Of a stretch of 64,000 nucleotides of DNA, positions 39,566 through 63,589 are shown one piece after another. The notes beneath the pieces are model-generated. The model made no database searches. It was given only the letters and a program-made list of their open reading frames with translations, and was not told where the DNA came from. Position 1 is the first letter of the stretch. The number at the start of each line of letters is the position of its first letter. Made by a program: the position numbers and the translations under genes. The DNA lies in contig JAGVGM010000277.1 in NCBI GenBank assembly GCA_020057065.1, positions 1,794 through 65,793 of the forward strand, in the 5' to 3' direction. Origin of the DNA: Thermodesulfovibrionia bacterium (lineage in GTDB: Bacteria; Nitrospirota; Thermodesulfovibrionia; UBA6902).

Positions 39566-42349
39566 ATGACATCCAAAATAGCTAAATTCTTTCTTTTTAT
39601 TATTCTTGCATCTGCGACTTATACATACGCGGAAACCGTAAAGCTCAATGTGACCAGAGACGTATGGCTCTCAGCATATCCAGGTGAAGAGAACTTCAAT
39701 ATGGGCGTTTCGCCGAAGCTGAAGCTCAAGGGTATTCAGGAGATGGCGATACTGGATTTTGATCTTTCACAACTGAAAGGGAAGAAGATAGAAAGTGCCA
39801 GACTGTATATTTGTAATGCAGCCAAAAACAATAAGCTGAGAAGGATCGGGATATCTACGGTTGCTTCCGACTGGGTTGAAGGCAGTTCAAGAGATTATTC
39901 AATTGACAAAATCGGCAAAGGCGCTGCATTCCTTTACTCAAGCTATAAAGAAAAAAGATGGGCTGGAGAGGGTTCTGATCTGACCGATGTGACGATGGGC
40001 AGCGGAAACACCCGGCAGCATCATACAGAGTTGCGAAGGGAAAACGGCATGTGGTGGTCTGTTGACATTGACCCGGAATTGCTTTACGCCCTGATATTAA
40101 ACAAGTCCCATGGGCTTCTTGTGATGGATGAATCAGGTCAGACAATGGTCAATAATTTTATATATTCAAAAGAATCAAAAGACTCATTGCCATATCTTGA
40201 GGTCGCCTATTCAAAGGCCGGGACAAAGAAGCCGCAGAAGCTTGACGCCAAATTATTACCGTCGCCTGAAAATGCTCATATGGAGTCCGGCGCTTTGGTA
40301 TTGAGGGTTCCGATTAAAGAGGATATCTTTGCCTTTGATGTATTCATTAATGATAAGGAAGCTCCTCTATGGAGGATCCCAAAACCGGGTCCGGTCAATT
40401 CCGTTCAGGAAATAATAATAGACTGGCTCCCGCCTGAGAAAAAAACAGATATCAAAATAATGGCCGTAAATGAACTTGGTCAAAGATCAGAACCGGTGTC
40501 TGTGAGTGGTTATGCGTCAAAGGCATTGTCGAGGATTGCTATTCACAACACCCCCACCCCCCTTGATAGGGGGGAAGATTTAAGAAAGGCCACGCTTCTA
40601 AGGGTGTGGGCATTGCCTGATATTGTCAAGATAGACCCTGTCAGCGGTAATGTGTTGTCAGAGACAGTATCTTCAGGATTTGATCATGCAAATACGATAT
40701 GGACCGAGAGTAAAAAAGAGATAAATCTCGTTGCGTTAAGGGGAGAGGTCATAGGATTTCAGTTATGTATTGAATCGGGCAATAAACTATTTGATGAACT
40801 GGAAATTAAAATGCCGGAATTGGCAAGTAATAATAAAAAGCTGATATCTGCGAAGCAGTTTTCCATGTATCAGGTGCATTACCTGAAGGTAAAAGAAAAA
40901 TGGTATCCGGAGATAGCCATTCCCATGAAGGACGGCAAAATAATCATGAAGGCAGAACAAAGACCTGTAAAAGATCAAAAGAATCAATTGATATACATTG
41001 ATCTTTCCATTCCTTCCCAGACAGATGCAGGGCTTTACAAAGGGGATATTCTTGTTCTAGGAAATGGGATCGTTGAGGAGACGCTTCATATTGATCTGAA
41101 GGTGGCTGATGTATTAATGCCCAAAAAACTTTCATTTGTTCCCGAATTAAATATGTATAACGGACCGGATAAAGCCGGAACAGAGAGGTTTTATCAGGCA
41201 CACCAAATAGCGCGCGAACATCGGACCGTTATTAACAGGGTCCCGTATAATCAGAACGGGACGGTTCACAATGATATGATCCCGAAGATCTCATATTCAA
41301 ATGACGGAAAGGTTGAGATCGACTGGACAGATTATGATCGAAGATTAGGTCCTTTATTTGACGGCTCGGTATTTTCTGCCGGGGAAAGAAGAGGGATGCC
41401 TGTTGAAAAGTTCTATCTCCCTTTTTTTGAGAACTGGCCGGCTCAGTTAGCGCCGAATTATAATTATGGATATGAAGGAGCAAAAACTAAGGAAGCAATT
41501 TCAAAACATGCAATGGATGCCCCGCCGGTGAATGATGCATTCACGTCAAAGTACAGGGAAAATTTCATTGAAGTAGTTAAGAAATTTAAGAAACATTTTG
41601 AAGATAAAGGCTGGGATCAGCCCGAATTTCAATTCTATCTTAATAATAAGCCGCGCTGGAAAGGCTCCTCTTCATGGTGGGATCTGGATGAGCCTGTGTC
41701 GTATGATGACTGGATGGCCTTAAAGTTCTACGGATCTCTCTTTAAACAGGCAACAGTGGATACACCTTTAAAGTTTATTTTCAGAGCGGATATCTCAAGG
41801 CCCCGGTGGCAGCATGACTGGCTGAACGGGCTGTTGGACAGGATGTATGTGCAGGACGAGGCGTTTTATAATTACACGGACAAAGTGCGTCAAATGAAAA
41901 AGACGGGGAAGATCAATTATTCCGTCTACGGCTCACTTAATAACATTGAATCATCAAATCAAAATACCGTATTCTGGTGCGTCAGGTCTTTTGCAGAAGG
42001 CGCTGATGGAGTGTTGCCCTGGCAGAGCCTGGGCGGGGCAAAGGCCTTTACAATACCCGACAGGAACGCCCTGATCATTGATGCAAGGGAACAGCTGGAT
42101 ATTGACTGGGTTGTCAGCCTCCGTGTGAAGGCTTTGCGAAGAGGTCAGCAGGATGCAGAGCTGCTGGGCCTGATAGAGAAGAAGTACGGTTATAACCGGG
42201 AGCAGATCCGTGATCTTGTTAACAGGTATTTTGAGACAGTTAAGCTTTCAGGGAATAATGACGACATGAATACAACAATAGATACTGCCAGAATGGATAA
42301 TTTCAGAAAGATCCTGATTGAAATGCTGGAACATGAAAGAAACAGATAA
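39566..42349 (+). CDS. Secreted 927-aa protein: N-terminal DNRLRE-like domain and C-terminal DUF4091-like putative glycoside-hydrolase region
   Basis: Signal peptide MTSKIAKFFLFIILASATYTYA. AILDFDLSQLKGKKIESARLYICNA resembles the DNRLRE pattern. The C-terminal ...GADGVLPWQSLGG...VSLRVKALRRGQQDAELL resembles DUF4091. Domain names are from recollection. Confidence 0.6.
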   Translation: MTSKIAKFFLFIILASATYTYAETVKLNVTRDVWLSAYPGEENFNMGVSPKLKLKGIQEMAILDFDLSQLKGKKIESARLYICNAAKNNKLRRIGISTVASDWVEGSSRDYSIDKIGKGAAFLYSSYKEKRWAGEGSDLTDVTMGSGNTRQHHTELRRENGMWWSVDIDPELLYALILNKSHGLLVMDESGQTMVNNFIYSKESKDSLPYLEVAYSKAGTKKPQKLDAKLLPSPENAHMESGALVLRVPIKEDIFAFDVFINDKEAPLWRIPKPGPVNSVQEIIIDWLPPEKKTDIKIMAVNELGQRSEPVSVSGYASKALSRIAIHNTPTPLDRGEDLRKATLLRVWALPDIVKIDPVSGNVLSETVSSGFDHANTIWTESKKEINLVALRGEVIGFQLCIESGNKLFDELEIKMPELASNNKKLISAKQFSMYQVHYLKVKEKWYPEIAIPMKDGKIIMKAEQRPVKDQKNQLIYIDLSIPSQTDAGLYKGDILVLGNGIVEETLHIDLKVADVLMPKKLSFVPELNMYNGPDKAGTERFYQAHQIAREHRTVINRVPYNQNGTVHNDMIPKISYSNDGKVEIDWTDYDRRLGPLFDGSVFSAGERRGMPVEKFYLPFFENWPAQLAPNYNYGYEGAKTKEAISKHAMDAPPVNDAFTSKYRENFIEVVKKFKKHFEDKGWDQPEFQFYLNNKPRWKGSSSWWDLDEPVSYDDWMALKFYGSLFKQATVDTPLKFIFRADISRPRWQHDWLNGLLDRMYVQDEAFYNYTDKVRQMKKTGKINYSVYGSLNNIESSNQNTVFWCVRSFAEGADGVLPWQSLGGAKAFTIPDRNALIIDAREQLDIDWVVSLRVKALRRGQQDAELLGLIEKKYGYNREQIRDLVNRYFETVKLSGNNDDMNTTIDTARMDNFRKILIEMLEHERNR

Positions 42350-43166
42350 AATAAACATTACTTCAACAATATTATTCCTGTGTGCCATGGGATTCCTGTA
42401 CTGGAAAACTGTCCTTGGAATGGTCCACGACTGGTATATAGATGAGAACTACTCTCACGGATTCCTTATACCGGTAATATCGGGCTATTTTTACTGGCAG
42501 ATGAGGGATAGAGTAAGATCTATTGAAAAAACCCGGTCCGTTTCCGGTCTCTTTATATTGCTTTTCGGGATGAGCATATTTCTTGTCGGTTATCTTGCAG
42601 GTGAACAGTTTACAATGAGGTTTTCGATGCTTATTGTAGCGGCCGGCGCCATAGTATTTGCTTACGGAATGGAAATTTTTAAAGCAATATCGTTCCCTTT
42701 ACTCTACCTCATATTTATGATCCCTCTGCCATATATACTTTATGATTCGGTAGCATTTCCTTTAAAACTTCTTGTATCAAAAGTCTCGGTAGAGTTTTTA
42801 TCATTTATAGGGATCCTTGTTATGCGGGAAGGCAATATTATACATCTTGCCAGTACAACGCTTGAGGTGGCGGATGCATGCAGCGGCATCAGATCTATTA
42901 TATCCCTGCTTGCGTTATCAACAGCCATTGCTTATTTAACCCAAAAAGGATGGATCAAAAGAGTAATACTTATTGTTCTTGCGGTTCCAATCGCTGTATT
43001 CGTGAATTCTATCAGGGTCATTGTCACCGGTATTCTTGCAGAAAAATATGGCGCAGCGGCGGCAGAGGGTTTCTTTCATGAGTTTGCGGGCCTTGTGATA
43101 TTTGGCATTGCGATAGTAATGCTGATTTCATCGGCGGTCATTATGGGAAAGATGAATAGAAAATAA
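42333..43166 (+). CDS. xrtA: Exosortase (EpsH/XrtA-like)
   Basis: Polytopic membrane protein with catalytic-type motifs ADACSGIRS, VNSIRV and FFHEFAG. ATG 42333 overlaps the upstream stop (42347-42349) by 17 nt. Confidence 0.9.
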   Translation: MKETDKINITSTILFLCAMGFLYWKTVLGMVHDWYIDENYSHGFLIPVISGYFYWQMRDRVRSIEKTRSVSGLFILLFGMSIFLVGYLAGEQFTMRFSMLIVAAGAIVFAYGMEIFKAISFPLLYLIFMIPLPYILYDSVAFPLKLLVSKVSVEFLSFIGILVMREGNIIHLASTTLEVADACSGIRSIISLLALSTAIAYLTQKGWIKRVILIVLAVPIAVFVNSIRVIVTGILAEKYGAAAAEGFFHEFAGLVIFGIAIVMLISSAVIMGKMNRK

Positions 43167-43288: not shown

Positions 43289-43915
43289 ATGAATAAAAGA
43301 ATACTGATAGCAGCGGGCATCATATTGTTGTTTGCAATATATATAAGGACAGGCTCTTTCCATGAAGTGGTTCCTTTAAAGAAAGCACTGGATGACTTTC
43401 CGCTTGTATGGAAAGGATGGGAGGGCAATAAAAACTTTTTTGATGCGATTATACTTGACAGATTAAGGGCTGACGAATATATGTCGAGAGAATACGTTAA
43501 GGGAGCTGACAGGATTCAGCTGTATGTCGGTTATTACAGCTCACAAAAAGAAGGGGCCCAGATCCATTCCCCCAAGCATTGTTTGCCGGGAAGCGGGTGG
43601 TTTAAGGTTTATGAGAAAAATAAAATATTGGACATTGAAAATACAGATAAAATAAATTATATTGAAGCGTTATATCAAAAAGGCTCTGAAAAAAAGCTTT
43701 TCATATATTGGTATAAAATGAAGGACGTTTATATTACTAATGATTATATTTTAAAGTTGTATATGATCATCAACTCTTTAAAATACAGGAGGAACGATGC
43801 CGCTTTTTTAAGGTTTTCAACGCCGGTCACTAAAAATGTTGAAGATGCTGAGAATGTGATTGAAAGCGCCATGAGAGATCTTCTTCCGTTACTTAAGGAC
43901 CATTTGCCGGAATGA
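43289..43915 (+). CDS. epsI: EpsI-family exosortase-associated protein
   Basis: N-terminal TM, then LYVGYYSSQKEGAQIHSPKHCLPGSGW. Confidence 0.85.
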   Translation: MNKRILIAAGIILLFAIYIRTGSFHEVVPLKKALDDFPLVWKGWEGNKNFFDAIILDRLRADEYMSREYVKGADRIQLYVGYYSSQKEGAQIHSPKHCLPGSGWFKVYEKNKILDIENTDKINYIEALYQKGSEKKLFIYWYKMKDVYITNDYILKLYMIINSLKYRRNDAAFLRFSTPVTKNVEDAENVIESAMRDLLPLLKDHLPE

Positions 43916-43939: not shown

Positions 43940-44551
43940 ATGAAAGAAAATAATGTTATATGGGATGACAGGTATGTAAAGAGGGAGGAACGAAACCGTC
44001 TGAACAATCATAAAAGCGGTTTTGTCTTGCTCACCGGACTTTCAGCATCCGGAAAATCTACGATTGCCCATCACGTAGAGAGAGAACTTTTTGATGATGG
44101 TATTCATGCATATGTCCTTGACGGTGACAATATAAGACATGGCCTGAACAGTAATTTGACCTTTAGCAGGGAAGACAGAAAAGAAAACCTTAGAAGGATA
44201 GTTGAAGTGTCCAAACTTTTTGTAGATGCCGGGATTATCGTCTTCGGCGCTTTTATCTTCCCGTACTCAGAGGATAGAGAATATATAAAAAAGCGTTTTG
44301 AAGGTGATAACTTTCTTGAAATATATGTAAAGTGTTCTATTGAATTATGTGAAAAGCGTGATCCTAAGGGTCAATATCAAAAAGCAAGAGCAGGAATTAT
44401 AAAGAACTATACAGGTATTTCTTCTCCCTACGAAGAACCCCAAAACCCTGATCTTGTTATAGATACGGAAGTAGCCGATATTGAGAATTCAGTCCGGATG
44501 ATTACATATCTTCTTACAAAGAAAAAAATATTAGCTGTTGATAAAATTTAA
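43940..44551 (+). CDS. cysC: Adenylyl-sulfate (APS) kinase
   Basis: FVLLTGLSASGKSTIA, LDGDNIRHGLNSNLTFSREDRKENLRR and ISSPYEEP. Confidence 0.92.
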   Translation: MKENNVIWDDRYVKREERNRLNNHKSGFVLLTGLSASGKSTIAHHVERELFDDGIHAYVLDGDNIRHGLNSNLTFSREDRKENLRRIVEVSKLFVDAGIIVFGAFIFPYSEDREYIKKRFEGDNFLEIYVKCSIELCEKRDPKGQYQKARAGIIKNYTGISSPYEEPQNPDLVIDTEVADIENSVRMITYLLTKKKILAVDKI

Positions 44552-44615: not shown

Positions 44616-46487
44616 TTATTTCTTGATCTTGACAGACATTACATCATAGTAATATGTTTCAGGGTCTATCGAGCCGTTCTTATTTGTATCAACCCCAAAG
44701 TAAAGGTTATATAAACCCTTTGGTAATCCTTTCATTTTCAGCGTCTCAACACTGACCGTATTAACAAGTGGTTTCTGATCATACTGTAAAATGCCAAGCC
44801 GCCATCTTTCAGACAGAGTGTCATAGTAGTACCAGTTATTTTTTCTTTCTAACAGCACCCACCATTCGGCATCAATCCCCTCATAACTTTCAGGATTAAG
44901 CTGTAATTCTATTTCAGCCGTTTTACCTTTTCTCAATTTAATAAAATCATCTGAACCGTTAACCTTAATTTCAGGTGCGGGATTTATAATATCAGTGCCG
45001 GGCCCTGTTAGGGGAATAGTAAATGCTGGGGTATTTGGATCATTGGAGTTAATTAAAAGATCTGCGCTCTTTGACCCCTCTGCAGCAGGCTGGAAAACTA
45101 TATCAAGCATACACGACTCCGCAGGTTGTAGTGTTTGATTGGTGCAACTATTGGTGTTTAATGTGAAACTGCCAGCATCTGCCCCAATAACACTAATGGC
45201 ATTTATGGATAGCTCTTGCACGCCTGTATTTGAGATCAAAATTGTTTGTTTTGAGGATGGCTCCATTATTGTACTTGAAAACTCAAGTTGAGTTGGTTGA
45301 CAGGTTACCCAGACATTATCAAGTGCCCAGAACTCATTGGTTGAATTGCCCGTATAACTGAATCTTATCTTTGCGTTATCAGTATCTGCAGCATCGCTTA
45401 TATCAATGGTTTTCCAGTTCGGGTCCGGATACCCATCTCTTAACGGCATGTTGACAGTATTTGTCCAGTTAGATCCTCCGTCATCACTGATATTGATTTC
45501 GACATTGCCGTTTATCAGATGACGCTGGTTGCTGAATGCAAGTTCAACGCTATTACAGGATGTGGTATCCAATACCGGGGTTATCAGTTCATCGGTCCCT
45601 GTCATTGTGCAGGATGAATCTGCTATTGCGAACGGTGCAACAAATGGAGAACTTATGGTCTTTTCACAAGGATTATCTGTATTCCAGTTACCAGCTTTTT
45701 CCCAGGTGTTTGGTATTCCACCTGAGAAATCCTCACTTAACAGCACTTTGCTTACACTAATGGCAGATGTGCATCCTTCGTCAACCTGACCATTACAGTT
45801 GTTGTCTGATCCGTCACATACTTCAGCGGTTGGCGTATAGGGATTGCAAGTATTAATTAGTTGACCACTTGTACATTGCTGAGTCCCTGTGGAGGAGCAA
45901 GCCCCTACACCGCAGATAGTAGTTGATGGTACAAACCCCTCATCAACCTGGCCGTTGCAGTTATCATCTGTTCCATTACAAATGGTATCCGGAGCGCCGG
46001 GGTTAATAATAGCGTTGTTATCATTACAGTCATTGCCTGCTGTTGTCTGGCATCCTGCCGGTTGACAGCCTGTTCCGGTACAGGTGCCGTCAGTTGATGA
46101 ACTTATGTAACCATCATTGTCTTTATCGCAGTAGTAACTTATTGCAGTAATAGTTGTACTTATTTCATTGGAAGCAATGCTTTGATTGCCGCTCGTATCA
46201 TATGCAGTTATAGCAAAATAGTATGAAGATCCGGCTGAAAGATCTGTGATTGTGTAGCTTGTTACATTGCCGGCATCATTACTTTGAGTATAATTTCCTG
46301 AGATTAGGCCATAGTAGACTCTATAGCCTGCCAGGTCTCTCAAAGGCGTACCGTCAGCATTTGTGGTTGGGGGGGTCCAGGAAAGGGTTATATTTGTTGC
46401 GAATAGAACGGAAGCGCTAAAAAGGCTTATCAGAAAAAATATGAACCCGAAATATACTCTTTTATGTTTTGTGTATGTTTTTGACAT
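44616..46487 (-). CDS. Secreted multidomain protein (FN3, Cys-rich putative metal-binding repeats, lectin-like domain, choice-of-anchor-D/ASH-like domain)
   Basis: Signal anchor, then an FN3-like domain (ITLSWTPPTTNADGTPL..GYRVYYG). There are two C..DCNDNN..INPGA..CNG.DDNCNGQVDEG-type repeats. ILISNTGVQELSINAISVIGADAGSF is typical of choice-of-anchor D. Confidence 0.7.
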   Translation of the reverse strand: MSKTYTKHKRVYFGFIFFLISLFSASVLFATNITLSWTPPTTNADGTPLRDLAGYRVYYGLISGNYTQSNDAGNVTSYTITDLSAGSSYYFAITAYDTSGNQSIASNEISTTITAISYYCDKDNDGYISSSTDGTCTGTGCQPAGCQTTAGNDCNDNNAIINPGAPDTICNGTDDNCNGQVDEGFVPSTTICGVGACSSTGTQQCTSGQLINTCNPYTPTAEVCDGSDNNCNGQVDEGCTSAISVSKVLLSEDFSGGIPNTWEKAGNWNTDNPCEKTISSPFVAPFAIADSSCTMTGTDELITPVLDTTSCNSVELAFSNQRHLINGNVEINISDDGGSNWTNTVNMPLRDGYPDPNWKTIDISDAADTDNAKIRFSYTGNSTNEFWALDNVWVTCQPTQLEFSSTIMEPSSKQTILISNTGVQELSINAISVIGADAGSFTLNTNSCTNQTLQPAESCMLDIVFQPAAEGSKSADLLINSNDPNTPAFTIPLTGPGTDIINPAPEIKVNGSDDFIKLRKGKTAEIELQLNPESYEGIDAEWWVLLERKNNWYYYDTLSERWRLGILQYDQKPLVNTVSVETLKMKGLPKGLYNLYFGVDTNKNGSIDPETYYYDVMSVKIKK

Positions 46488-46549
46488 GGCCCTTGCCCTC
46501 CGTCACTTTTTCCGAGCCAGGAAACAGGCCGATAACCATGTCAAGCGCT

Positions 46550-46635
46550 GTTTCTTCGGCAGCCTGGCCATCCCAATACTGCGGGATCCGCGGCTTTGTG
46601 CCCCCCGGTTACCCGGGGTTTACCGTTTCGGAAAC
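46550..46635 (-). ncRNA. Candidate c-di-GMP-I (GEMM-I-like) riboswitch aptamer in the 5' leader
   Basis: A GC-rich island in AT-rich intergenic DNA. The RNA reads GUUUCCGAAACGGUAAACCCCGGGUAACCGGGGGGCACAAAGCCGCGGAUCCCGCAGUAUUGGGAUGGCCAGGCUGCCGAAGAAAC. The layout is GGUAAA, a 6-bp stem with a GUAA (GNRA) loop, GGCACAAAGCC, then a second hairpin. This mirrors the remembered Vc2 GGGCAAA-stem(GAAA)-GGACGCAAAGCC-stem. Confidence 0.4.
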
Positions 46636-46932
46636 ATATTTTTATGTACTCTTATTAATAGAATAATTGAAAAAGCCTTTTACAGCAGTGATCCATATCA
46701 CGAAATATGTCGATTTTTTTTACTACCGCAGGAAAGGTTTACAATTTAGTCCTTAAGTGAAAAATCTTATAAAATTAAGAGGTTAAGGTATTTACAGTGT
46801 GTGTTATTATTTTTTTATAGAAGAATTATGTCGAATTAATTTACATAATAATAAAAAATACAATAAGGACAAAAAAACGGGCAAAGCTAAATAAACTAAT
46901 ATTATCAGCATGTTATGGTAATATTTGAGAAT

Positions 46933-46948
46933 TGGCATATATATTGCT
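46933..46948 (+). promoter_or_regulatory. Sigma-54 (-24/-12) promoter of the first PEP-CTERM gene
   Basis: TGGCAT-ATATA-TTGCT has exact GG-N10-GC spacing and ends 70 nt before ATG 47019. Confidence 0.75.
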
Positions 46949-47018
46949 TTAAACAAATATAGAAAACAAAAAAAATAATTCAATATAAAATTGAAAATTA
47001 AAAAAGGAGGATGTAACA

Positions 47019-47654
47019 ATGAATAAAATAGTAAAAATCTTATTAGTCTTAGTAGCTGTAATAGGTATAATGGGAGTTCAGCCAGCTAATGCTGTTCCTA
47101 CCCTTACATTAACAAGTGGTGCATTTTCATTCACAATTACTGATGAAGGAATTGGGGATTTGACCACTGGTGCGGGTGCTATGACTTTTAGTGGCGCAGT
47201 TGGCGACTTTATTGTTAACGTATCAACAGGCATCACAAAGCCGGTTCTGGGTTCTGCGAGCATGCCTTGGATGGATCTTAATTCAGTTAATGTATCATCA
47301 AAAGCTGCCACATTAGAAATTTGGTTCGATGATTCAGGATTTACCTATAACGGTGGTTTGATAATGAACGTAGGCGGTACATTCCAGAACACAGCAACAT
47401 TCGAAACCCGTGTTAATGGAACAACGATCAGTTCCCTTATTTTAGGTCCTGGACCAGCTGCTGGTACAACTGGCGGTGCTGCGTCACTGACGTCCTCTGA
47501 CACGCTGACTTTATACACTAATATCAATCATTTAAAAGCTGGCGCTACAAGCTTTGACCAGGAAGTTGTAACACCTGAACCAAGTACATTATTGCTCCTG
47601 GGTTCGGGTCTGGTAGGCGCTGCATTCTACGCAAGACGCAGAAAAGTAAAATAG
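47019..47654 (+). CDS. PEP-CTERM sorting-domain secreted protein
   Basis: Signal peptide, and a C-terminal VTPEPSTLLLLGSGLVGAAFYARRRKVK. AAGGAGG precedes the start. Confidence 0.92.
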   Translation: MNKIVKILLVLVAVIGIMGVQPANAVPTLTLTSGAFSFTITDEGIGDLTTGAGAMTFSGAVGDFIVNVSTGITKPVLGSASMPWMDLNSVNVSSKAATLEIWFDDSGFTYNGGLIMNVGGTFQNTATFETRVNGTTISSLILGPGPAAGTTGGAASLTSSDTLTLYTNINHLKAGATSFDQEVVTPEPSTLLLLGSGLVGAAFYARRRKVK

Positions 47655-48097: not shown

Positions 48098-48757
48098 ATG
48101 AAAAATATAAGCAAGATTCTAATTATTGCGTTCGCACTATCTATACTGATTGGTATTCAATCTGTGTACGCAATCCCGACTCTTCAATTGAAGAGTGGTG
48201 CAACTACAAAGACGATTGCTGATGGGAGCATTTTAGACGCTAATTCTGAAGCAGGTGTAGTTACTTACATTGGTGCGGTTGGCATTTTCAATCTTAATGT
48301 AACAACAGGAGTTACCAAGCCAGCGCTTGGTTCTGCTACATTACCAGATTTGGATCTGAATTCAGTAGACCTAAACTCAAGTGGAGCCGGAACTCTTAAG
48401 ATATTATTTACTGACGACAATTTCGGTCCGTATACCGGTGGATTTCTATTCAATGTAGGCGGCACTACCAATAATAATACTGTTGGGTTCAAGGCTTATG
48501 TTGATTCTGTACAAATTGTAGATTTAGGGACATTTGGTGGCAGTGGCTCACAGGCATTTAGTGGCAGTGGTTCTGGCGGTAATGGAGTCTATTTAAATCC
48601 ATTTACATTAACCACTGAAGCTACGATCACAACTACTGGTAGATCCAATGTCAGTTTTGATGCAGAACTTGTTACACCGGAACCGAGCACAATAATGCTC
48701 TTAGGCTCAGGTTTAATTGGCGCTGCTATTTACGCAAGACGCAGAAAAATAAAATAG
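48098..48757 (+). CDS. PEP-CTERM sorting-domain secreted protein (paralog of 47019-47654)
   Basis: Signal peptide, and a C-terminal VTPEPSTIMLLGSGLIGAAIYARRRKIK. The core GAVG.F..NV.TG.TKP.LGSA is shared with the paralog. Confidence 0.92.
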   Translation: MKNISKILIIAFALSILIGIQSVYAIPTLQLKSGATTKTIADGSILDANSEAGVVTYIGAVGIFNLNVTTGVTKPALGSATLPDLDLNSVDLNSSGAGTLKILFTDDNFGPYTGGFLFNVGGTTNNNTVGFKAYVDSVQIVDLGTFGGSGSQAFSGSGSGGNGVYLNPFTLTTEATITTTGRSNVSFDAELVTPEPSTIMLLGSGLIGAAIYARRRKIK

Positions 48758-48861: not shown

Positions 48862-49566
48862 CTACAATTTAATATTTAGATCTTTTTGCAGAAAAGCCGG
48901 ATTCAGGCGGATAAATTTGTTCTTTTGAATGGTTATTTCTCCGGAATTTTTCCATTTATCCAAAATCCTTGTAACGGACTCCCGGGTCATTCCTGTCATT
49001 TCGGCAATATCCTGATGAGTAAGTTTGATGTTTAATGTTATCCCCTCTGAGGATTTTTTCCCATATTCATCTGAAAGCATAAGAAGCAGCATTTTTGTCC
49101 GTTGTGAAGCGTTATTGAAATTTAATAACTGTATTGTGTCCCAGGACTTACGCAGACGGGTACAAAATATTTTCAGCAAGCTTATCATTACTTTGTTTTG
49201 AGCTGATAAAATTGAATAGAAATCTTTTTTAGAAATGATGGCGACAAGGGAATCCTCTGTAGCTATTACAGAGGCCGGGGTTGTTTTGCCGTCGATCAAT
49301 GACATCTCCCCAAAGAACTCACCCGCTTGATGTACTGCAAGAATTATCTCTTTGCCGTCTTCTGTCATACGCACGGCTTTTACTTTGCCGAACAAAATAA
49401 TATACATGAATTCATTGGTATCTTCCTCGTAGAGGATTGTTTCGTGCTTTTTAAATTTTTTGACAATTAATTTTGTTATGAGATGTTCTATTTCCTTATC
49501 AGACAATGATGAGAAAAGCTGAATTTTCTTAAGAAATTCATTTTTATTATTAAAATTGTTTTGCAC
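48862..49566 (-). CDS. Crp/Fnr-family transcriptional regulator
   Basis: cNMP-binding domain (GEFFGEMSLIDG..TPASVIA) and a C-terminal HTH (LTHQDIAEMTGMTRESVTRIL). Confidence 0.88.
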   Translation of the reverse strand: MQNNFNNKNEFLKKIQLFSSLSDKEIEHLITKLIVKKFKKHETILYEEDTNEFMYIILFGKVKAVRMTEDGKEIILAVHQAGEFFGEMSLIDGKTTPASVIATEDSLVAIISKKDFYSILSAQNKVMISLLKIFCTRLRKSWDTIQLLNFNNASQRTKMLLLMLSDEYGKKSSEGITLNIKLTHQDIAEMTGMTRESVTRILDKWKNSGEITIQKNKFIRLNPAFLQKDLNIKL

Positions 49567-50057: not shown

Positions 50058-52127
50058 ATGATAACATTTATATTTTCAATAATTACAGCTATTGTTGCAA
50101 TTGTCATAGCTTTTGTAGTTTTTCTTAAGAGATACAACCGTCTTTCTCATATAGCGTTTTTTGTAAGCATGCTTTCGACAGCATTTGTGATCTTTGGGGA
50201 TTCAATGTGCATGCTTAATCCTGAATCTATAATTCTCTGGAAGAGATTTGTATTTATAGTTGAGGCGTTGATGGCCACTTCATGGCTTTTATTTGCCATG
50301 AGTTTTGCTCGTGCTGATTATTGGCATGTTGTTAGCAAGTTCTCCAAGCTTCTATTAATGTTATCCCCTCTTTTTGCATATTTTTTTATTGCTATACCGA
50401 TTGAAAATTTCTTTCTTTCTCCCGATTCCGAGTTCAGGAATGAAAAGATTCTTTTCTTGGGGAACACTGGATATGTATTCAACCTTCTGCTTCTTCTCTA
50501 TTCTGTTGTATCAATTATTAATTTAGAGACAACGTTGAGAAGTTCTTCTGGAGTTAACAAGTGGCAAATTAAATATACTGTTATGGGGGCAGGCGGCATT
50601 ATTGCATTTAATATTTTTTATTATAGCTACGCTCTCCTTTATCGTTCAATTAACATGGACTTATTACCGGTAAGGGATGGAATTGTTCTTGTTTCAAATA
50701 TGGTTATAGGATTTTCAATTCTCAGGCACAAGGCGATGGATGTTGAAGTTGCTATATCACGAAATATATTGTTCAGATCGCTAAGTATTTTTATTGTAGG
50801 ATTTTACCTGCTTGGACTTGGGTTAATAGGCGAAGGGATGAGGTATTTGGGTCCGAGAGCTGGTACGAATATTACGATCTTTCTGGGTTTCATTGGCGCT
50901 ATCGTGGTCCTGACAATTATTCTTTCAGAACAATTGCGAAGGAAAGCAATAGTTTTTATTCACAAGAATTTTTATAGTTACAAGTATGATTACAGGGAAC
51001 AGTGGCTGAGTTTTACACAGCGTATTTCTTTAAAAAACGATTTTGATGAATTATTGGGATCGATAGCTGAAGGTTTTAAGGAAGCAATAGGTTCAACAGG
51101 AGCGGCAATATGGTTGAAGGGCAGGGATAATAAGGAATATGTATGTGTTAAGGTTTTGGAAACAAATATTGTTAAGGCTGCTCCGGGCAGCAGGCTTATA
51201 GAATTTCTTCAGAATAAAAAATGGATCTTAAATGTCCATGATAATGAATGTAAAACAGTTGTGTCTGACAATAAGGAATTTATCGAAAAGACCGGAGCAT
51301 CTCTTATAGTTCCTCTTATTCATATTGACAGGCTTATTGGTTTTATTATTCTCAGGGAGAGCCTTGCCGAGAATGAATATAATTATGAGGACTTTGATTT
51401 GCTTAAGACGCTGGCCAAACAGGCGTCCCTGGCAATTGTGAATACACAGCTTGCTGATGAGCTGATAGAGGCAAAAGAAATGGAGGCGATGGGAAGATTA
51501 TCATCGTTCATAATACATGATCTCAAGAATTCAGCCTCTATGCTTTCAATGATAGCACAAAATTCAGAAGAGCATATTGATAATCCGGATTTCCAGAGAG
51601 ATGCGATGCGGGCGGTATCTAATACCTCAGAAAAAATCAGGGGTATTATAGATAAATTGAAAAACCTGCCGATTAAAGCAGAACTGCACCTCAAATATTA
51701 TGATCTGTGTGAGTGCGTTAAGTCAGCTATTGCTCAGGTTGGTTTAAATGGAAAAGCGAATTTGTCTTATAAAGAAATTGAAAACGTAAGTACAAAATTC
51801 GATAATGAAGAACTTTCAAAGGTTATTATTAATCTCATAATGAATGCATTTGATGCAACCGGGATGAAGGGCGAAATAAAAATATCCACCGGCACTGAAA
51901 ATGGCGCTGCTTTCATCAGAGTTTCTGATAATGGATGCGGGATGTCAACTGATTTTATAGATAGAAATTTATTCAGGCCGTTCCAAACTACAAAGAAAAA
52001 AGGGCTTGGAATAGGTCTTTATCAATGTAAGACAATTATAGAGGCCCATTCTGGTAGAATGTTAGTAGAGAGTCAAGAGGGTAGGGGAACTGAATTTATA
52101 ATTTACTTGCCCATAATTTCGCATTGA
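50058..52127 (+). CDS. prsK: PEP-CTERM system sensor histidine kinase (PrsK-like)
   Basis: Multi-TM N-terminus, a GAF-like middle region, H-box SSFIIHDLKNS, and HATPase motifs NLIMNAFDA, DNGCGM and GLGIGLYQCK. Confidence 0.88.
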   Translation: MITFIFSIITAIVAIVIAFVVFLKRYNRLSHIAFFVSMLSTAFVIFGDSMCMLNPESIILWKRFVFIVEALMATSWLLFAMSFARADYWHVVSKFSKLLLMLSPLFAYFFIAIPIENFFLSPDSEFRNEKILFLGNTGYVFNLLLLLYSVVSIINLETTLRSSSGVNKWQIKYTVMGAGGIIAFNIFYYSYALLYRSINMDLLPVRDGIVLVSNMVIGFSILRHKAMDVEVAISRNILFRSLSIFIVGFYLLGLGLIGEGMRYLGPRAGTNITIFLGFIGAIVVLTIILSEQLRRKAIVFIHKNFYSYKYDYREQWLSFTQRISLKNDFDELLGSIAEGFKEAIGSTGAAIWLKGRDNKEYVCVKVLETNIVKAAPGSRLIEFLQNKKWILNVHDNECKTVVSDNKEFIEKTGASLIVPLIHIDRLIGFIILRESLAENEYNYEDFDLLKTLAKQASLAIVNTQLADELIEAKEMEAMGRLSSFIIHDLKNSASMLSMIAQNSEEHIDNPDFQRDAMRAVSNTSEKIRGIIDKLKNLPIKAELHLKYYDLCECVKSAIAQVGLNGKANLSYKEIENVSTKFDNEELSKVIINLIMNAFDATGMKGEIKISTGTENGAAFIRVSDNGCGMSTDFIDRNLFRPFQTTKKKGLGIGLYQCKTIIEAHSGRMLVESQEGRGTEFIIYLPIISH

Positions 52128-54604: not shown

Positions 54605-55996
54605 ATGAAACCATTATTGATGATCGAAGACAACCCTGACATACAGACACAGATGAAGTGGGGCTTTAACAAAGAGTATGATATTGTCCTGGCTTCAGAC
54701 AGAATTACAGCCCTTAAGTTATTTAAAAAGAAACATATTCCTGTTGTCACACTCGATTTAGGACTTCCCCCTGATGAGAATGATGCCAGCGAGGGGCTGT
54801 TATGTCTTCGTGAAATATTACTTGAGGCTCCACAGACCAAGGTAATTATAGTAACAGGTAATGATGACAGGGAGAACGCCCTTAAGGCTATTCATTTAGG
54901 CGCCTATGATTACTATCTAAAACCTGTAAAAATCGCTGAACTTAATGCAATTATTCAACGGGCTTACTATCTTTATGAGATAGAAAATGAAAATAGTAAA
55001 TTGCATATAATGTTAGAGCATGAGGTCGGATACGCAGGTATGATAGGTCAGAGTCAGGAAATGCAGAAAATATTTGATACTATTCATAAGGTCGCTTCGA
55101 CCGATGCAACAATATTAATTACCGGAGAAAGCGGTACGGGCAAAGAACTGGTTGCACAGGCTATTCATGAGAAGAGCTTAAGAAAAAAGGGTCCGTTTAT
55201 AGCGATTAATTGCGGTGCGATACCTGAGACCCTTCTCGAATCTGAGCTTTTTGGTCATGAAAAGGGCGCCTTTACAGGCGCCTATGCCCAGCAGAATGGC
55301 AAATTTGAATATGCGGACAAAGGAACCCTTTTTCTTGATGAGATTGCTGAAATGTCTCCGAGTCTTCAGGCCAAACTTTTAAGATTCCTGCAGGAAAGAA
55401 AGATTCAGCGGGTCGGCGGCAGAAATGATATAGAAATTAATACACGGGTTATTGCTGCGACAAATATTGACTTGACCGCTGCAATGAAAGAAGGTGGATT
55501 TCGTGAAGATCTTTTTTACAGGATAAGTGTTATTTCAATTAATGTACCGCCTTTAAAAGAAAGAGGGAATGATATACGCCTGCTTGCTAATGCATTTCTT
55601 GAAAGATATAAGGTAATGTTCAAAAAGAAGATCAAGGGATTCAGCAATAAAGCGCTTGAAGCAATTGAGAACTATGCCTGGCCCGGCAATGTACGGGAAC
55701 TTGAAAACAAACTGCAGAAAGCAGTCATTACAGCAGACTCTAACATAATAGAACCCTACCATTTGGGTTTGGAAGAACAATCGGAGATAGACAGAGAGAA
55801 TCTGAAGAAAAGATATGAGGGTGTCACTTTAAAAGAGGCCCGTAAAAAACTTGAAAAGGATCTGATCGCAAGTGTGGTTAAAAGGCACAATGGGAATATA
55901 AAAAGGGCATCCGAAGAATTGGGTGTCAGCAGGCCAACATTGTATGATCTGATCGACAAATATAAACTTCCTATTAAGGACGAATTGAAGGATTAG
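54605..55996 (+). CDS. prsR: Sigma-54-dependent response regulator (PrsR-like, NtrC family)
   Basis: Receiver domain (LDLGLPPD), AAA+ domain (GESGTGKE, ESELFGHEKGAFTGA), and a C-terminal Fis-type HTH (ASEELGVSRPTLYDLI). Confidence 0.92.
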   Translation: MKPLLMIEDNPDIQTQMKWGFNKEYDIVLASDRITALKLFKKKHIPVVTLDLGLPPDENDASEGLLCLREILLEAPQTKVIIVTGNDDRENALKAIHLGAYDYYLKPVKIAELNAIIQRAYYLYEIENENSKLHIMLEHEVGYAGMIGQSQEMQKIFDTIHKVASTDATILITGESGTGKELVAQAIHEKSLRKKGPFIAINCGAIPETLLESELFGHEKGAFTGAYAQQNGKFEYADKGTLFLDEIAEMSPSLQAKLLRFLQERKIQRVGGRNDIEINTRVIAATNIDLTAAMKEGGFREDLFYRISVISINVPPLKERGNDIRLLANAFLERYKVMFKKKIKGFSNKALEAIENYAWPGNVRELENKLQKAVITADSNIIEPYHLGLEEQSEIDRENLKKRYEGVTLKEARKKLEKDLIASVVKRHNGNIKRASEELGVSRPTLYDLIDKYKLPIKDELKD

Positions 55997-63091: not shown

Positions 63092-63589
63092 ATGGCGGAT
63101 GAACATTCGTTCGATGTTGTAAGTAAAGTCGATCTGCAGGAGGTCTCCAATGCCGTTCAGCAGGCATTAAAGGAAATGGGACAGCGGTTTGATTTCAGGG
63201 GGAGCAAAAGCAATATTGAACTCGACAAAACAAAAAATGAAATTCTTCTCACATCCGATGATGAATACAGGCTGAAAAGCGTTATTGATATGCTGCAGAG
63301 CAAACTTATAAAAAGGCAGGTGCCTTTGAAGGCATTGAGCTATGGAAAAGTTGAGCCCGCGGCGTCAAACACCGTGAAGCAGATCATAACCCTTCAACAG
63401 GGCATTCCAACCGAAAAAGCCAAAGAGATCGTGAAGATCATCAAGGATACAAAGCTCAAGGTCCAGTCTGAAATACAGAAGGACCAGTTACGCATCAGGG
63501 CCAAGAAGATAGATGACCTCCAGGCAGTAATGAAGATTTTGAAGGAGAAAGATATGGAAGTTCATATTGATTTTGTGAATTACAGGTAA
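63092..63589 (+). CDS. yajQ: YajQ-family nucleotide-binding protein (UPF0234)
   Basis: SFDVVSKVDLQEVSNAVQQALKEMGQRFDFRGS, 165 aa. Confidence 0.9.
   Translation: MADEHSFDVVSKVDLQEVSNAVQQALKEMGQRFDFRGSKSNIELDKTKNEILLTSDDEYRLKSVIDMLQSKLIKRQVPLKALSYGKVEPAASNTVKQIITLQQGIPTEKAKEIVKIIKDTKLKVQSEIQKDQLRIRAKKIDDLQAVMKILKEKDMEVHIDFVNYR

Follow-up and report, generated by a model that had tools for sequence, protein, structure and literature searches.

A candidate c-di-GMP-I riboswitch with a predicted translational OFF platform in the leader of a secreted FN3-type protein gene of a Thermodesulfovibrionia bacterium

The DNA analyzed here (the window; 64,000 nt) belongs to a Thermodesulfovibrionia (Nitrospirota) MAG of 4.16 Mb in 377 contigs, and from the genes it carries the window reads as an XrtA/PEP-CTERM exopolysaccharide locus. 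The features discussed are collected in Table 1. The gene of main concern encodes a 623-aa protein with a signal peptide, an FN3 domain, two MopE-type Cys-rich metal-binding motifs, a Reelin-B/MAM-like domain and a choice-of-anchor D Ig-like domain; the C-terminal 123 residues gave no significant Pfam match. Its closest named relative (68% identity) is from a Thermodesulfovibrionia MAG, and more distant matches were found in "Nitrospirae bacterium" MAGs. The structured element described below ends 67 nt from the ATG of this gene and lies in its 5′ UTR.

Table 1. Positions of the genes, RNA elements and promoter elements discussed (window coordinates).
Feature	Position	Strand	Remarks
Exosortase	42318-43166		
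EpsI	43289-43915		
APS kinase	43940-44551		
Regulated gene, 623-aa secreted protein	44616..46487	-	Pfam and NCBIfam domains
Initiation region	46481..46501	-	SD GGAGGG 46501-46496; ATG 46487-46485; segment predicted to be sequestered, GGCCAUGUCAA, 46491-46481
CGGAAAAAG	46506..46514	-	Degenerate remnant of terminator 3′ half, no U-tract
CUGUUUCC	46520..46527	-	3′ strand of the alternative hairpin; in relatives the terminator 5′ half
Anti-start-codon segment UUGACAUGGUU	46534..46544	-	Perfect complement of 46491-46481
Switching sequence GAAACAG	46548..46554	-	P1 3′ strand or 5′ strand of antiterminator-type hairpin; invariant in 10/10 leaders
c-di-GMP-I (GEMM-I) aptamer including extended closing helix P1	46550..46635	-	Rfam match proper 46555-46634
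Predicted -10 hexamer TATTCT	46660..46665	-	T1, A2 and T6 invariant in 10 leaders
Predicted CRP-type operator GTGATATGGATCAC (GTGA-N6-TCAC)	46688..46701	-	Centered at about -41.5 from the predicted start
PEP-CTERM proteins, two genes	47019-47654 and 48098-48757	+	
Crp/Fnr-family regulator	48862..49566	-	cNMP_binding and HTH_Crp_2 domains
PrsK	50058-52127		
PrsR	54605-55996		
YajQ/DUF520 gene	63092-63589		End of lpxD-lpxA-lpxI cluster, 16 kb from the riboswitch

The whole window was scanned against Rfam 15 at gathering thresholds, which returned two matches, one tRNA and one RF01051 (c-di-GMP-I). The latter runs on the minus strand from 46634 to 46555 and was untruncated (model positions 1-87), with a score of 61.2 bits (gathering score, 35) and an E-value of 1.6e-9 calculated for the whole 64-kb window versus 4227 families. 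The score is 26 bits over the curated threshold and was the same when the entire genome was searched. The closing helix P1 is formed by GUUUC (46635-46631) and the CG that follows it, paired with CG-AA-GAAAC (46558-46550). It encloses a first hairpin with a 6-bp stem (CCCCGG/CCGGGG) and a GUAA tetraloop at 46612-46609, a junction reading GGCACAAAGCC, and a second, bulged helix, P2 (GGAUCCC...GGGAU-GG-CC). The order of elements is thus GU/AC, AAA, CCCCGG-GUAA-CCGGGG, an AAA linker and P2 with one C.A mismatch; P2 has in addition a C.U mismatch at its apex. The inner 2-bp stem of P1 is G-C/U-A in place of G-C/C-G, a compensated change. An alignment to the Rfam consensus placed canonical residues at the ligand-contact positions, namely G46624 (G20), A46597 (A47) and C46559 (C92); the numbers in parentheses follow Vc2. 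The 11-nt tetraloop receptor is absent and a 2-nt bulge lies near the base of P2. All four structural features (P1, the 6-bp hairpin with its GNRA cap, the junction string and the bulged second hairpin) had been pointed out in an earlier sequence-only reading of this DNA, which quoted the minus-strand leader (46642-46470) correctly and proposed a GEMM-I element ahead of a secreted FN3/Cys-rich protein gene. An Infernal search against RF01051, with its full-length match and the c-di-GMP-type contact nucleotides, bore that identification out.

The match and its features are far beyond chance expectation. Thirty-four aptamers of the clade were aligned with MAFFT and the Rfam-derived structure was projected onto the alignment; 87.9% of cells were paired compared with 72.6% in shuffled alignments and 35-47% in slid controls with the partners moved by 1-3 columns. 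Twenty-five of the 28 pairs varied on both sides, and the observed values were reached by none of 500 shuffles. All close relatives have the same P1 extension and the same switching sequences, so that for these strands the comparison shows conservation and no covariation. By every testable feature the element is assigned to the c-di-GMP-I class, and to its receptor-less GYRA subtype. As an overall explanation we consider it probable that positions 46635-46550 (minus strand) form a functional c-di-GMP-I aptamer in the 5′ leader of the secreted-protein gene, and the contact nucleotides make c-di-GMP very likely as its ligand.

Twenty GGDEF-domain matches were found in the host genome, which argues that the organism makes c-di-GMP. 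The same genome has three GEMM-I elements. GEMM-I was found in 32 of 41 related genomes, with 15 copies in one of them. At no fewer than 16 loci, spread over 13 genomes, a homologue of the FN3-led secreted protein is preceded by a GEMM-I element at a distance of about 200 nt or less. One of these homologues is a paralogue in the host genome itself, on contig C205. Its aptamer scores 73.8 bits, the highest of the three and about 12 bits above that of the window. The third host element (G000:C314:749-824, minus strand; L003) precedes a gene with paired CXXCH and cytochrome c7-like motifs, presumably a multihaem cytochrome. A tRNA-Sec gene (RF01852, 74 bits) was seen at L013 473-566, about 1 kb upstream of a GEMM-I element of genome G021. 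The one clade member with a GAAA loop (L004) carries a receptor-like P2 of the form CCUAAG...UAAGG. In the searchable literature library no paper was found linking GEMM-I with Thermodesulfovibrionia, Thermodesulfovibrio or Nitrospirae.

The expression platform was compared in ten leaders from seven genomes: the window copy, two orthologues and seven copies of the paralogue type. All ten share, without any change, both GAAGAAACAG, which is the 3′ half of the extended P1, and a downstream segment, GCCUGUUUC. In seven of the nine relatives GCCUGUUUC is followed by a loop, its partner GGAAACAGGC and 5-7 U residues, which is a textbook intrinsic terminator. The segment between the P1 3′ strand and GCCUGUUUC, which reads CUGGUnnUUACCUCC in most leaders, is complementary to the Shine-Dalgarno and start region. 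A helix between this post-aptamer segment and the ribosome-binding region was predicted in 10/10 leaders, at -16 to -27 kcal/mol and with z-scores of -1.7 to -4.6 relative to shuffles. The partner sequences of this masking helix differ in the divergent leaders (G021C41, G007C98 and G020C56), in effect a covariation of the helix as a whole. The sequence GAAACAG has two alternative partners, the 5′ GUUUC of P1 and a downstream CUGUUUC, and the antiterminator formed with the latter also encloses the anti-SD segment, as in the free fold of the C205 paralogue. The terminator and the masking helix both lie clear of the aptamer and the antiterminator strand GAAACAG alone overlaps it, so a P1 locked by ligand would favor both of these structures, the behavior of an OFF switch. 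Two leaders from genome G006 also lack the U-tract and have their hairpin set directly against the SD; terminator-less platforms thus recur in the family.

Compared with its terminator-bearing relatives, the window leader has deletions of 13 and 15 alignment columns, which have taken the anti-SD segment and the distal 3′ half of the terminator with its U-tract. No terminator-like site was found in 46300-47100, and an intrinsic terminator in the window leader was discarded, the U-tract being deleted in the alignment. In the exact place of the lost anti-SD segment lies UUGACAUGGUU, which forms an 11-bp helix with GGCCAUGUCAA over the start codon. The duplex was calculated at -20.5 kcal/mol with a few extra pairs and at -16.2 kcal/mol for its core. 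The loss of the U-tract and the anti-SD segment, together with the gain of the start-codon helix, suggests that the window copy works at translation only, a reading to which we give about an even chance. The window copy would then be an OFF switch at translation, descended from one that acted on both transcription and translation.

Region 46636-46470 was folded without constraint, to represent the ligand-free state, and with the aptamer enforced, to represent the ligand-bound state. The minimum free energies were -63.5 and -58.3 kcal/mol, respectively, and this gap of 5 kcal/mol would be well within the binding energy of a ligand of nanomolar or tighter affinity. In the free fold GAAACAG (46554-46548) pairs with CUGUUUC (46527-46521); the hairpin is extended by GCU:GGC and UGAC:GUUA and buries UUGACAUGGUU. 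The freed 5′ P1 strand, UUUCCGA, pairs with UCGGAAA of the CGGAAAAAG region (P0 pairing). The probability of being unpaired was about 0.5 for the SD and about 0.4 for the AUG in the free fold, versus 0.04 and 0.00 with the aptamer enforced, when a long helix forms over the start region. A local SD/AUG hairpin masks about half of the ensemble even in the predicted ON state. When successively longer prefixes were folded, P1 formed first (88-105 nt) and was displaced at 117 nt as CUGUUUC emerged. On these nearest-neighbor energies and the assumed order of folding, on which the call of polarity rests, we somewhat favor a switch that turns expression off when ligand is bound. The sequence-only reading had already proposed an alternative pairing downstream of the aptamer and a platform built on it. 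The core of that pairing, GAAACAG:CUGUUUC, is the one seen in the unconstrained MFE fold and invariant in the ten leaders; the proposed extension CUGGC:GCCAGG is window-specific, not conserved and about 4 kcal/mol worse than the optimum, and was dropped. The switching strand is indeed shared with P1, while CUGUUUCC is not a direct mask of the start region, that part falling to the separate helix UUGACAUGGUU:GGCCAUGUCAA.

In an alignment of the 110 nt preceding the aptamer in the same ten leaders, GTGAT-N4-(A/C)TCAC-N-G was invariant in all of them, with unconserved flanks. A TAnnnT hexamer follows this box at 22 nt in the window and at 22-23 nt across the 10/10 leaders. From this spacing transcription is predicted to start near 46653; with the start about 7 nt past the hexamer, the box is centered at -41.5. 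Class II CRP/FNR promoters have their box at this distance. GTGA-N6-TCAC occurs 30 times in the 4.16-Mb genome, compared with about 58 expected from composition, and the strict form GTGAT-N4-ATCAC only twice. The other strict box (G000:C98:6799, minus strand) has the same 22-nt spacing to a -10 sequence TATCAT and precedes, with a 164-nt leader in which no GEMM-I match was found, the gene for a 643-aa secreted protein with MopE repeats.

The Crp/Fnr-family regulator encoded in the window has a CRP-type recognition helix, RESVTR. An orthologue with 94% identity lies directly upstream of the riboswitch and the FN3 gene, in the same direction, in another genome (G002:C9/L033), and the regulator also adjoins FN3-type genes in G004 and G006. 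In the window the two PEP-CTERM genes sit between the regulator and its presumed target, and the adjacency in G002:C9/L033 makes the pair look like an insertion. Whether this protein is the activator at the GTGA-N6-TCAC box we judge to be evenly balanced, on box conservation, the recognition helix and gene neighborhood. In an alignment made by eye it lacks the Arg-Ser pair of the cAMP phosphate pocket (GKTTPAS versus GQERSA in E. coli CRP). A second Crp-like paralogue (G000:C85:7761-8434; 43% identity, one in-frame TAA) is directly followed by GTGACAACCGTCAC, 22 nt, TAnnnT and the gene for an 878-aa secreted protein, and no riboswitch was found there. The sequence-only reading had named a Crp/Fnr and a YajQ-family gene in the window and pointed out that members of both families bind c-di-GMP in Xanthomonas. 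Both are present, and the Crp-like gene is apparently linked to the leader through the conserved box; the YajQ/DUF520 gene, 16 kb distant in the lpx cluster, shows no link to the riboswitch.

The mechanism proposed is as follows. Transcription would start near 46653 from the class II CRP-type promoter, with the Crp-like regulator (48862-49566) at the box. Without ligand, the weak P1 (GUUUCCG with CG-AA-GAAAC) would be displaced once CUGUUUC had been transcribed; the GAAACAG:CUGUUUC hairpin would extend inward through GCU:GGC and UGAC:GUUA and bury UUGACAUGGUU, the freed 5′ strand would pair with CGGAAA, and the ribosome-binding site, held in a weak local hairpin, would be translated. With c-di-GMP bound, P1 would be locked and the alternative hairpin blocked, so that UUGACAUGGUU could form its helix with GGCCAUGUCAA over the start codon and shut translation off. 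The bound ligand would decide the outcome in the interval between formation of P1 and its displacement at 117 nt, and pairing of UUGACAUGG with its partner strand is a predicted requirement for control. Most paralogues and orthologues would in addition use this logic to drive the intrinsic terminator that the window copy has lost.

The polarity of this scheme has a rival, in which the element is a real c-di-GMP sensor that acts as an ON switch, or tunes expression through RNA stability or Rho, and does not repress translation. Many GEMM elements are ON switches because the terminator overlaps the aptamer; Weinberg et al. (2007; PMC1950547) counted 78 of 322 elements with a terminator predicted to overlap it. 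As c-di-GMP commonly induces genes for matrix components and adhesins, repression of an adhesin-like secreted protein is contrary to expectation, and the SD and AUG remain about half masked in the free fold. Against this, neither the terminator of the relatives nor the start-codon helix of the window overlaps the aptamer. The overlap is confined to GAAACAG, and locking P1 can therefore only favor the terminator or the sequestering helix, for which reason we regard the ON reading as unlikely. A further reading takes the window copy as a decaying relic in which aptamer control was lost after the deletions and the Crp-type promoter alone regulates. The two deletions relative to relatives, the missing terminator, the two P2 mismatches and the lower score (61.2 versus 73.8 bits for the paralogue) would suit such a relic. 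All ligand-contact nucleotides and both switching strands are nevertheless intact, a new and perfect 11-bp complement of the start region stands exactly where the anti-SD segment was lost, and the two G006 leaders lack the U-tract too; decay thus seems very unlikely, and a retained OFF switch is the reading we prefer.

The choice of ligand was considered against the variant families of the class. With permissive thresholds RF03167 (c-di-GMP-I-GGC) came first by E-value on the window, yet its score of 56.8 bits is below its gathering score of 59. The RF03167 consensus reads GCGAAg where the parental family reads GCAAAg at the A47 junction site, and the window carries the parental A; RF03167 was rejected for the window on both counts. 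What the "GGC" label stands for we presume from the consensus lines of the two Rfam models. Every one of the 34 clade aptamers has A at position 47. Clan competition in Rfam gave the RF03167 label to L001, L005, L007, L008, L010-L013, L019, L025, L028, L033, L039 and L040, all of which have the parental A at position 47, so the labels are a side-effect of clan competition and indicate no variant ligand; the RF03167 gathering score does not set them apart from the canonical GEMM-I elements of this clade. The cGAMP-sensing GEMM-Ib type, with A at position 20, was ruled out for the window by the G at 46624. One relative, L014 1501-1580 (minus strand; G036:C130), does carry the mark of cGAMP-selective GEMM-Ib, an A in place of G20 (GAUAAG-A-GC-AAA), and is the sole one among the 34 aligned clade aptamers. 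We know of no report of the GEMM-Ib signature beyond Geobacter and its relatives. In L015, L019, L025 and L026 (aptamers at about 1500-1590), all 5′ of FN3-type genes, U replaces C at position 92 (GUCGAAG), and L015 was labeled RF03168 ("UAU") by Rfam although its position 20 is G. That the window aptamer senses another cyclic dinucleotide, for example 3′,3′-cGAMP, or a ligand like that of an orphan variant, might be argued from the RF03167 score and labels and from these substituted relatives, but with G20, A47 and C92 in the window copy, RF03167 under its gathering score and its diagnostic G found in none of the 34 clade members, this reading is highly improbable.

The closest known counterpart of the window aptamer is the GEMM-I form with a GYRA tetraloop and no receptor, which was described by Weinberg et al. 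(2007; PMC1950547). Shared with the RF01051 form of this kind are the two-hairpin architecture, the AAA linker, G20/A47/C92, the GNRA (GUAA) loop, the 2-nt bulge near the P2 base and the place in a 5′ UTR before a gene for an extracellular protein. The host lineage, Thermodesulfovibrionia, and the U-A in place of C-G as inner P1 pair set the window element apart. Geobacter GEMM-Ib, RF03167 (GGC) and RF03168 (UAU) have the same fold and belong to the same Rfam clan, CL00126, and, as in Geobacter, one of the three GEMM elements of the host precedes a multihaem cytochrome; the window differs from GEMM-Ib and RF03167 in having G and not A at position 20 and A and not G at position 47.

The Vc2 aptamer (Vibrio cholerae tfoY leader) and the Cd1 aptamer (Clostridioides difficile flgB leader) are GEMM-I OFF switches, of which Cd1 uses a terminator and Vc2 acts on translation. 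The junction between P1 and G20 is 1 nt shorter in the window than in Vc2. The predicted loss of expression with ligand is alike, the terminators of the paralogues resembling Cd1 and the window copy being predicted to act on translation like Vc2. Unlike either of them, a single leader in this family carries both a terminator and a helix masking the ribosome-binding site, of which the window copy keeps the helix only, and the target is a secreted FN3/MopE/choice-of-anchor-D protein and not a motility or competence gene. The predicted promoter is comparable to class II CRP/FNR promoters such as E. coli galP1, in that the box would replace the -35 element, with 22 nt from TCAC to the predicted -10 hexamer. 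The regulator has an R-E-x-x-x-R recognition helix and, in the alignment by eye, lacks the Arg-Ser of the cAMP pocket, and here such a promoter would be joined to a riboswitch.

Taken together, promoter and leader allow a wider proposal, which we put forward as decidedly improbable in its entirety. It holds that a two-input circuit is conserved across Thermodesulfovibrionia, in which a Crp-like activator, perhaps responsive to c-di-GMP like Xanthomonas Clp or sensing another nucleotide, would fire the class II promoter, and the transcript would then be subject to veto by a c-di-GMP OFF riboswitch. The window copy would in that case show how two small deletions, offset by a new anti-start-codon helix, recently turned a dual platform into one that is translational alone. 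If the circuit is true, it would give feed-forward or pulse-generating control of the secreted FN3/MopE metal-binding protein family.

New here are the lineage in which the element occurs, the family of proteins that it precedes and the way in which its platform has changed locally; knowledge of the riboswitch class itself is unchanged. The ten leaders form a natural series, with a terminator and masking of the ribosome-binding site in most and masking alone in the window and G006 copies, which may be useful for studying how expression platforms evolve. The findings would extend the c-di-GMP-I regulon to Thermodesulfovibrionia, an uncultured sulfate-reducing lineage of Nitrospirota, and point to the secreted FN3/MopE/choice-of-anchor-D family beside the XrtA/PEP-CTERM locus as surface factors under c-di-GMP control. 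Such control would give a functional handle on proteins that are otherwise unannotated.
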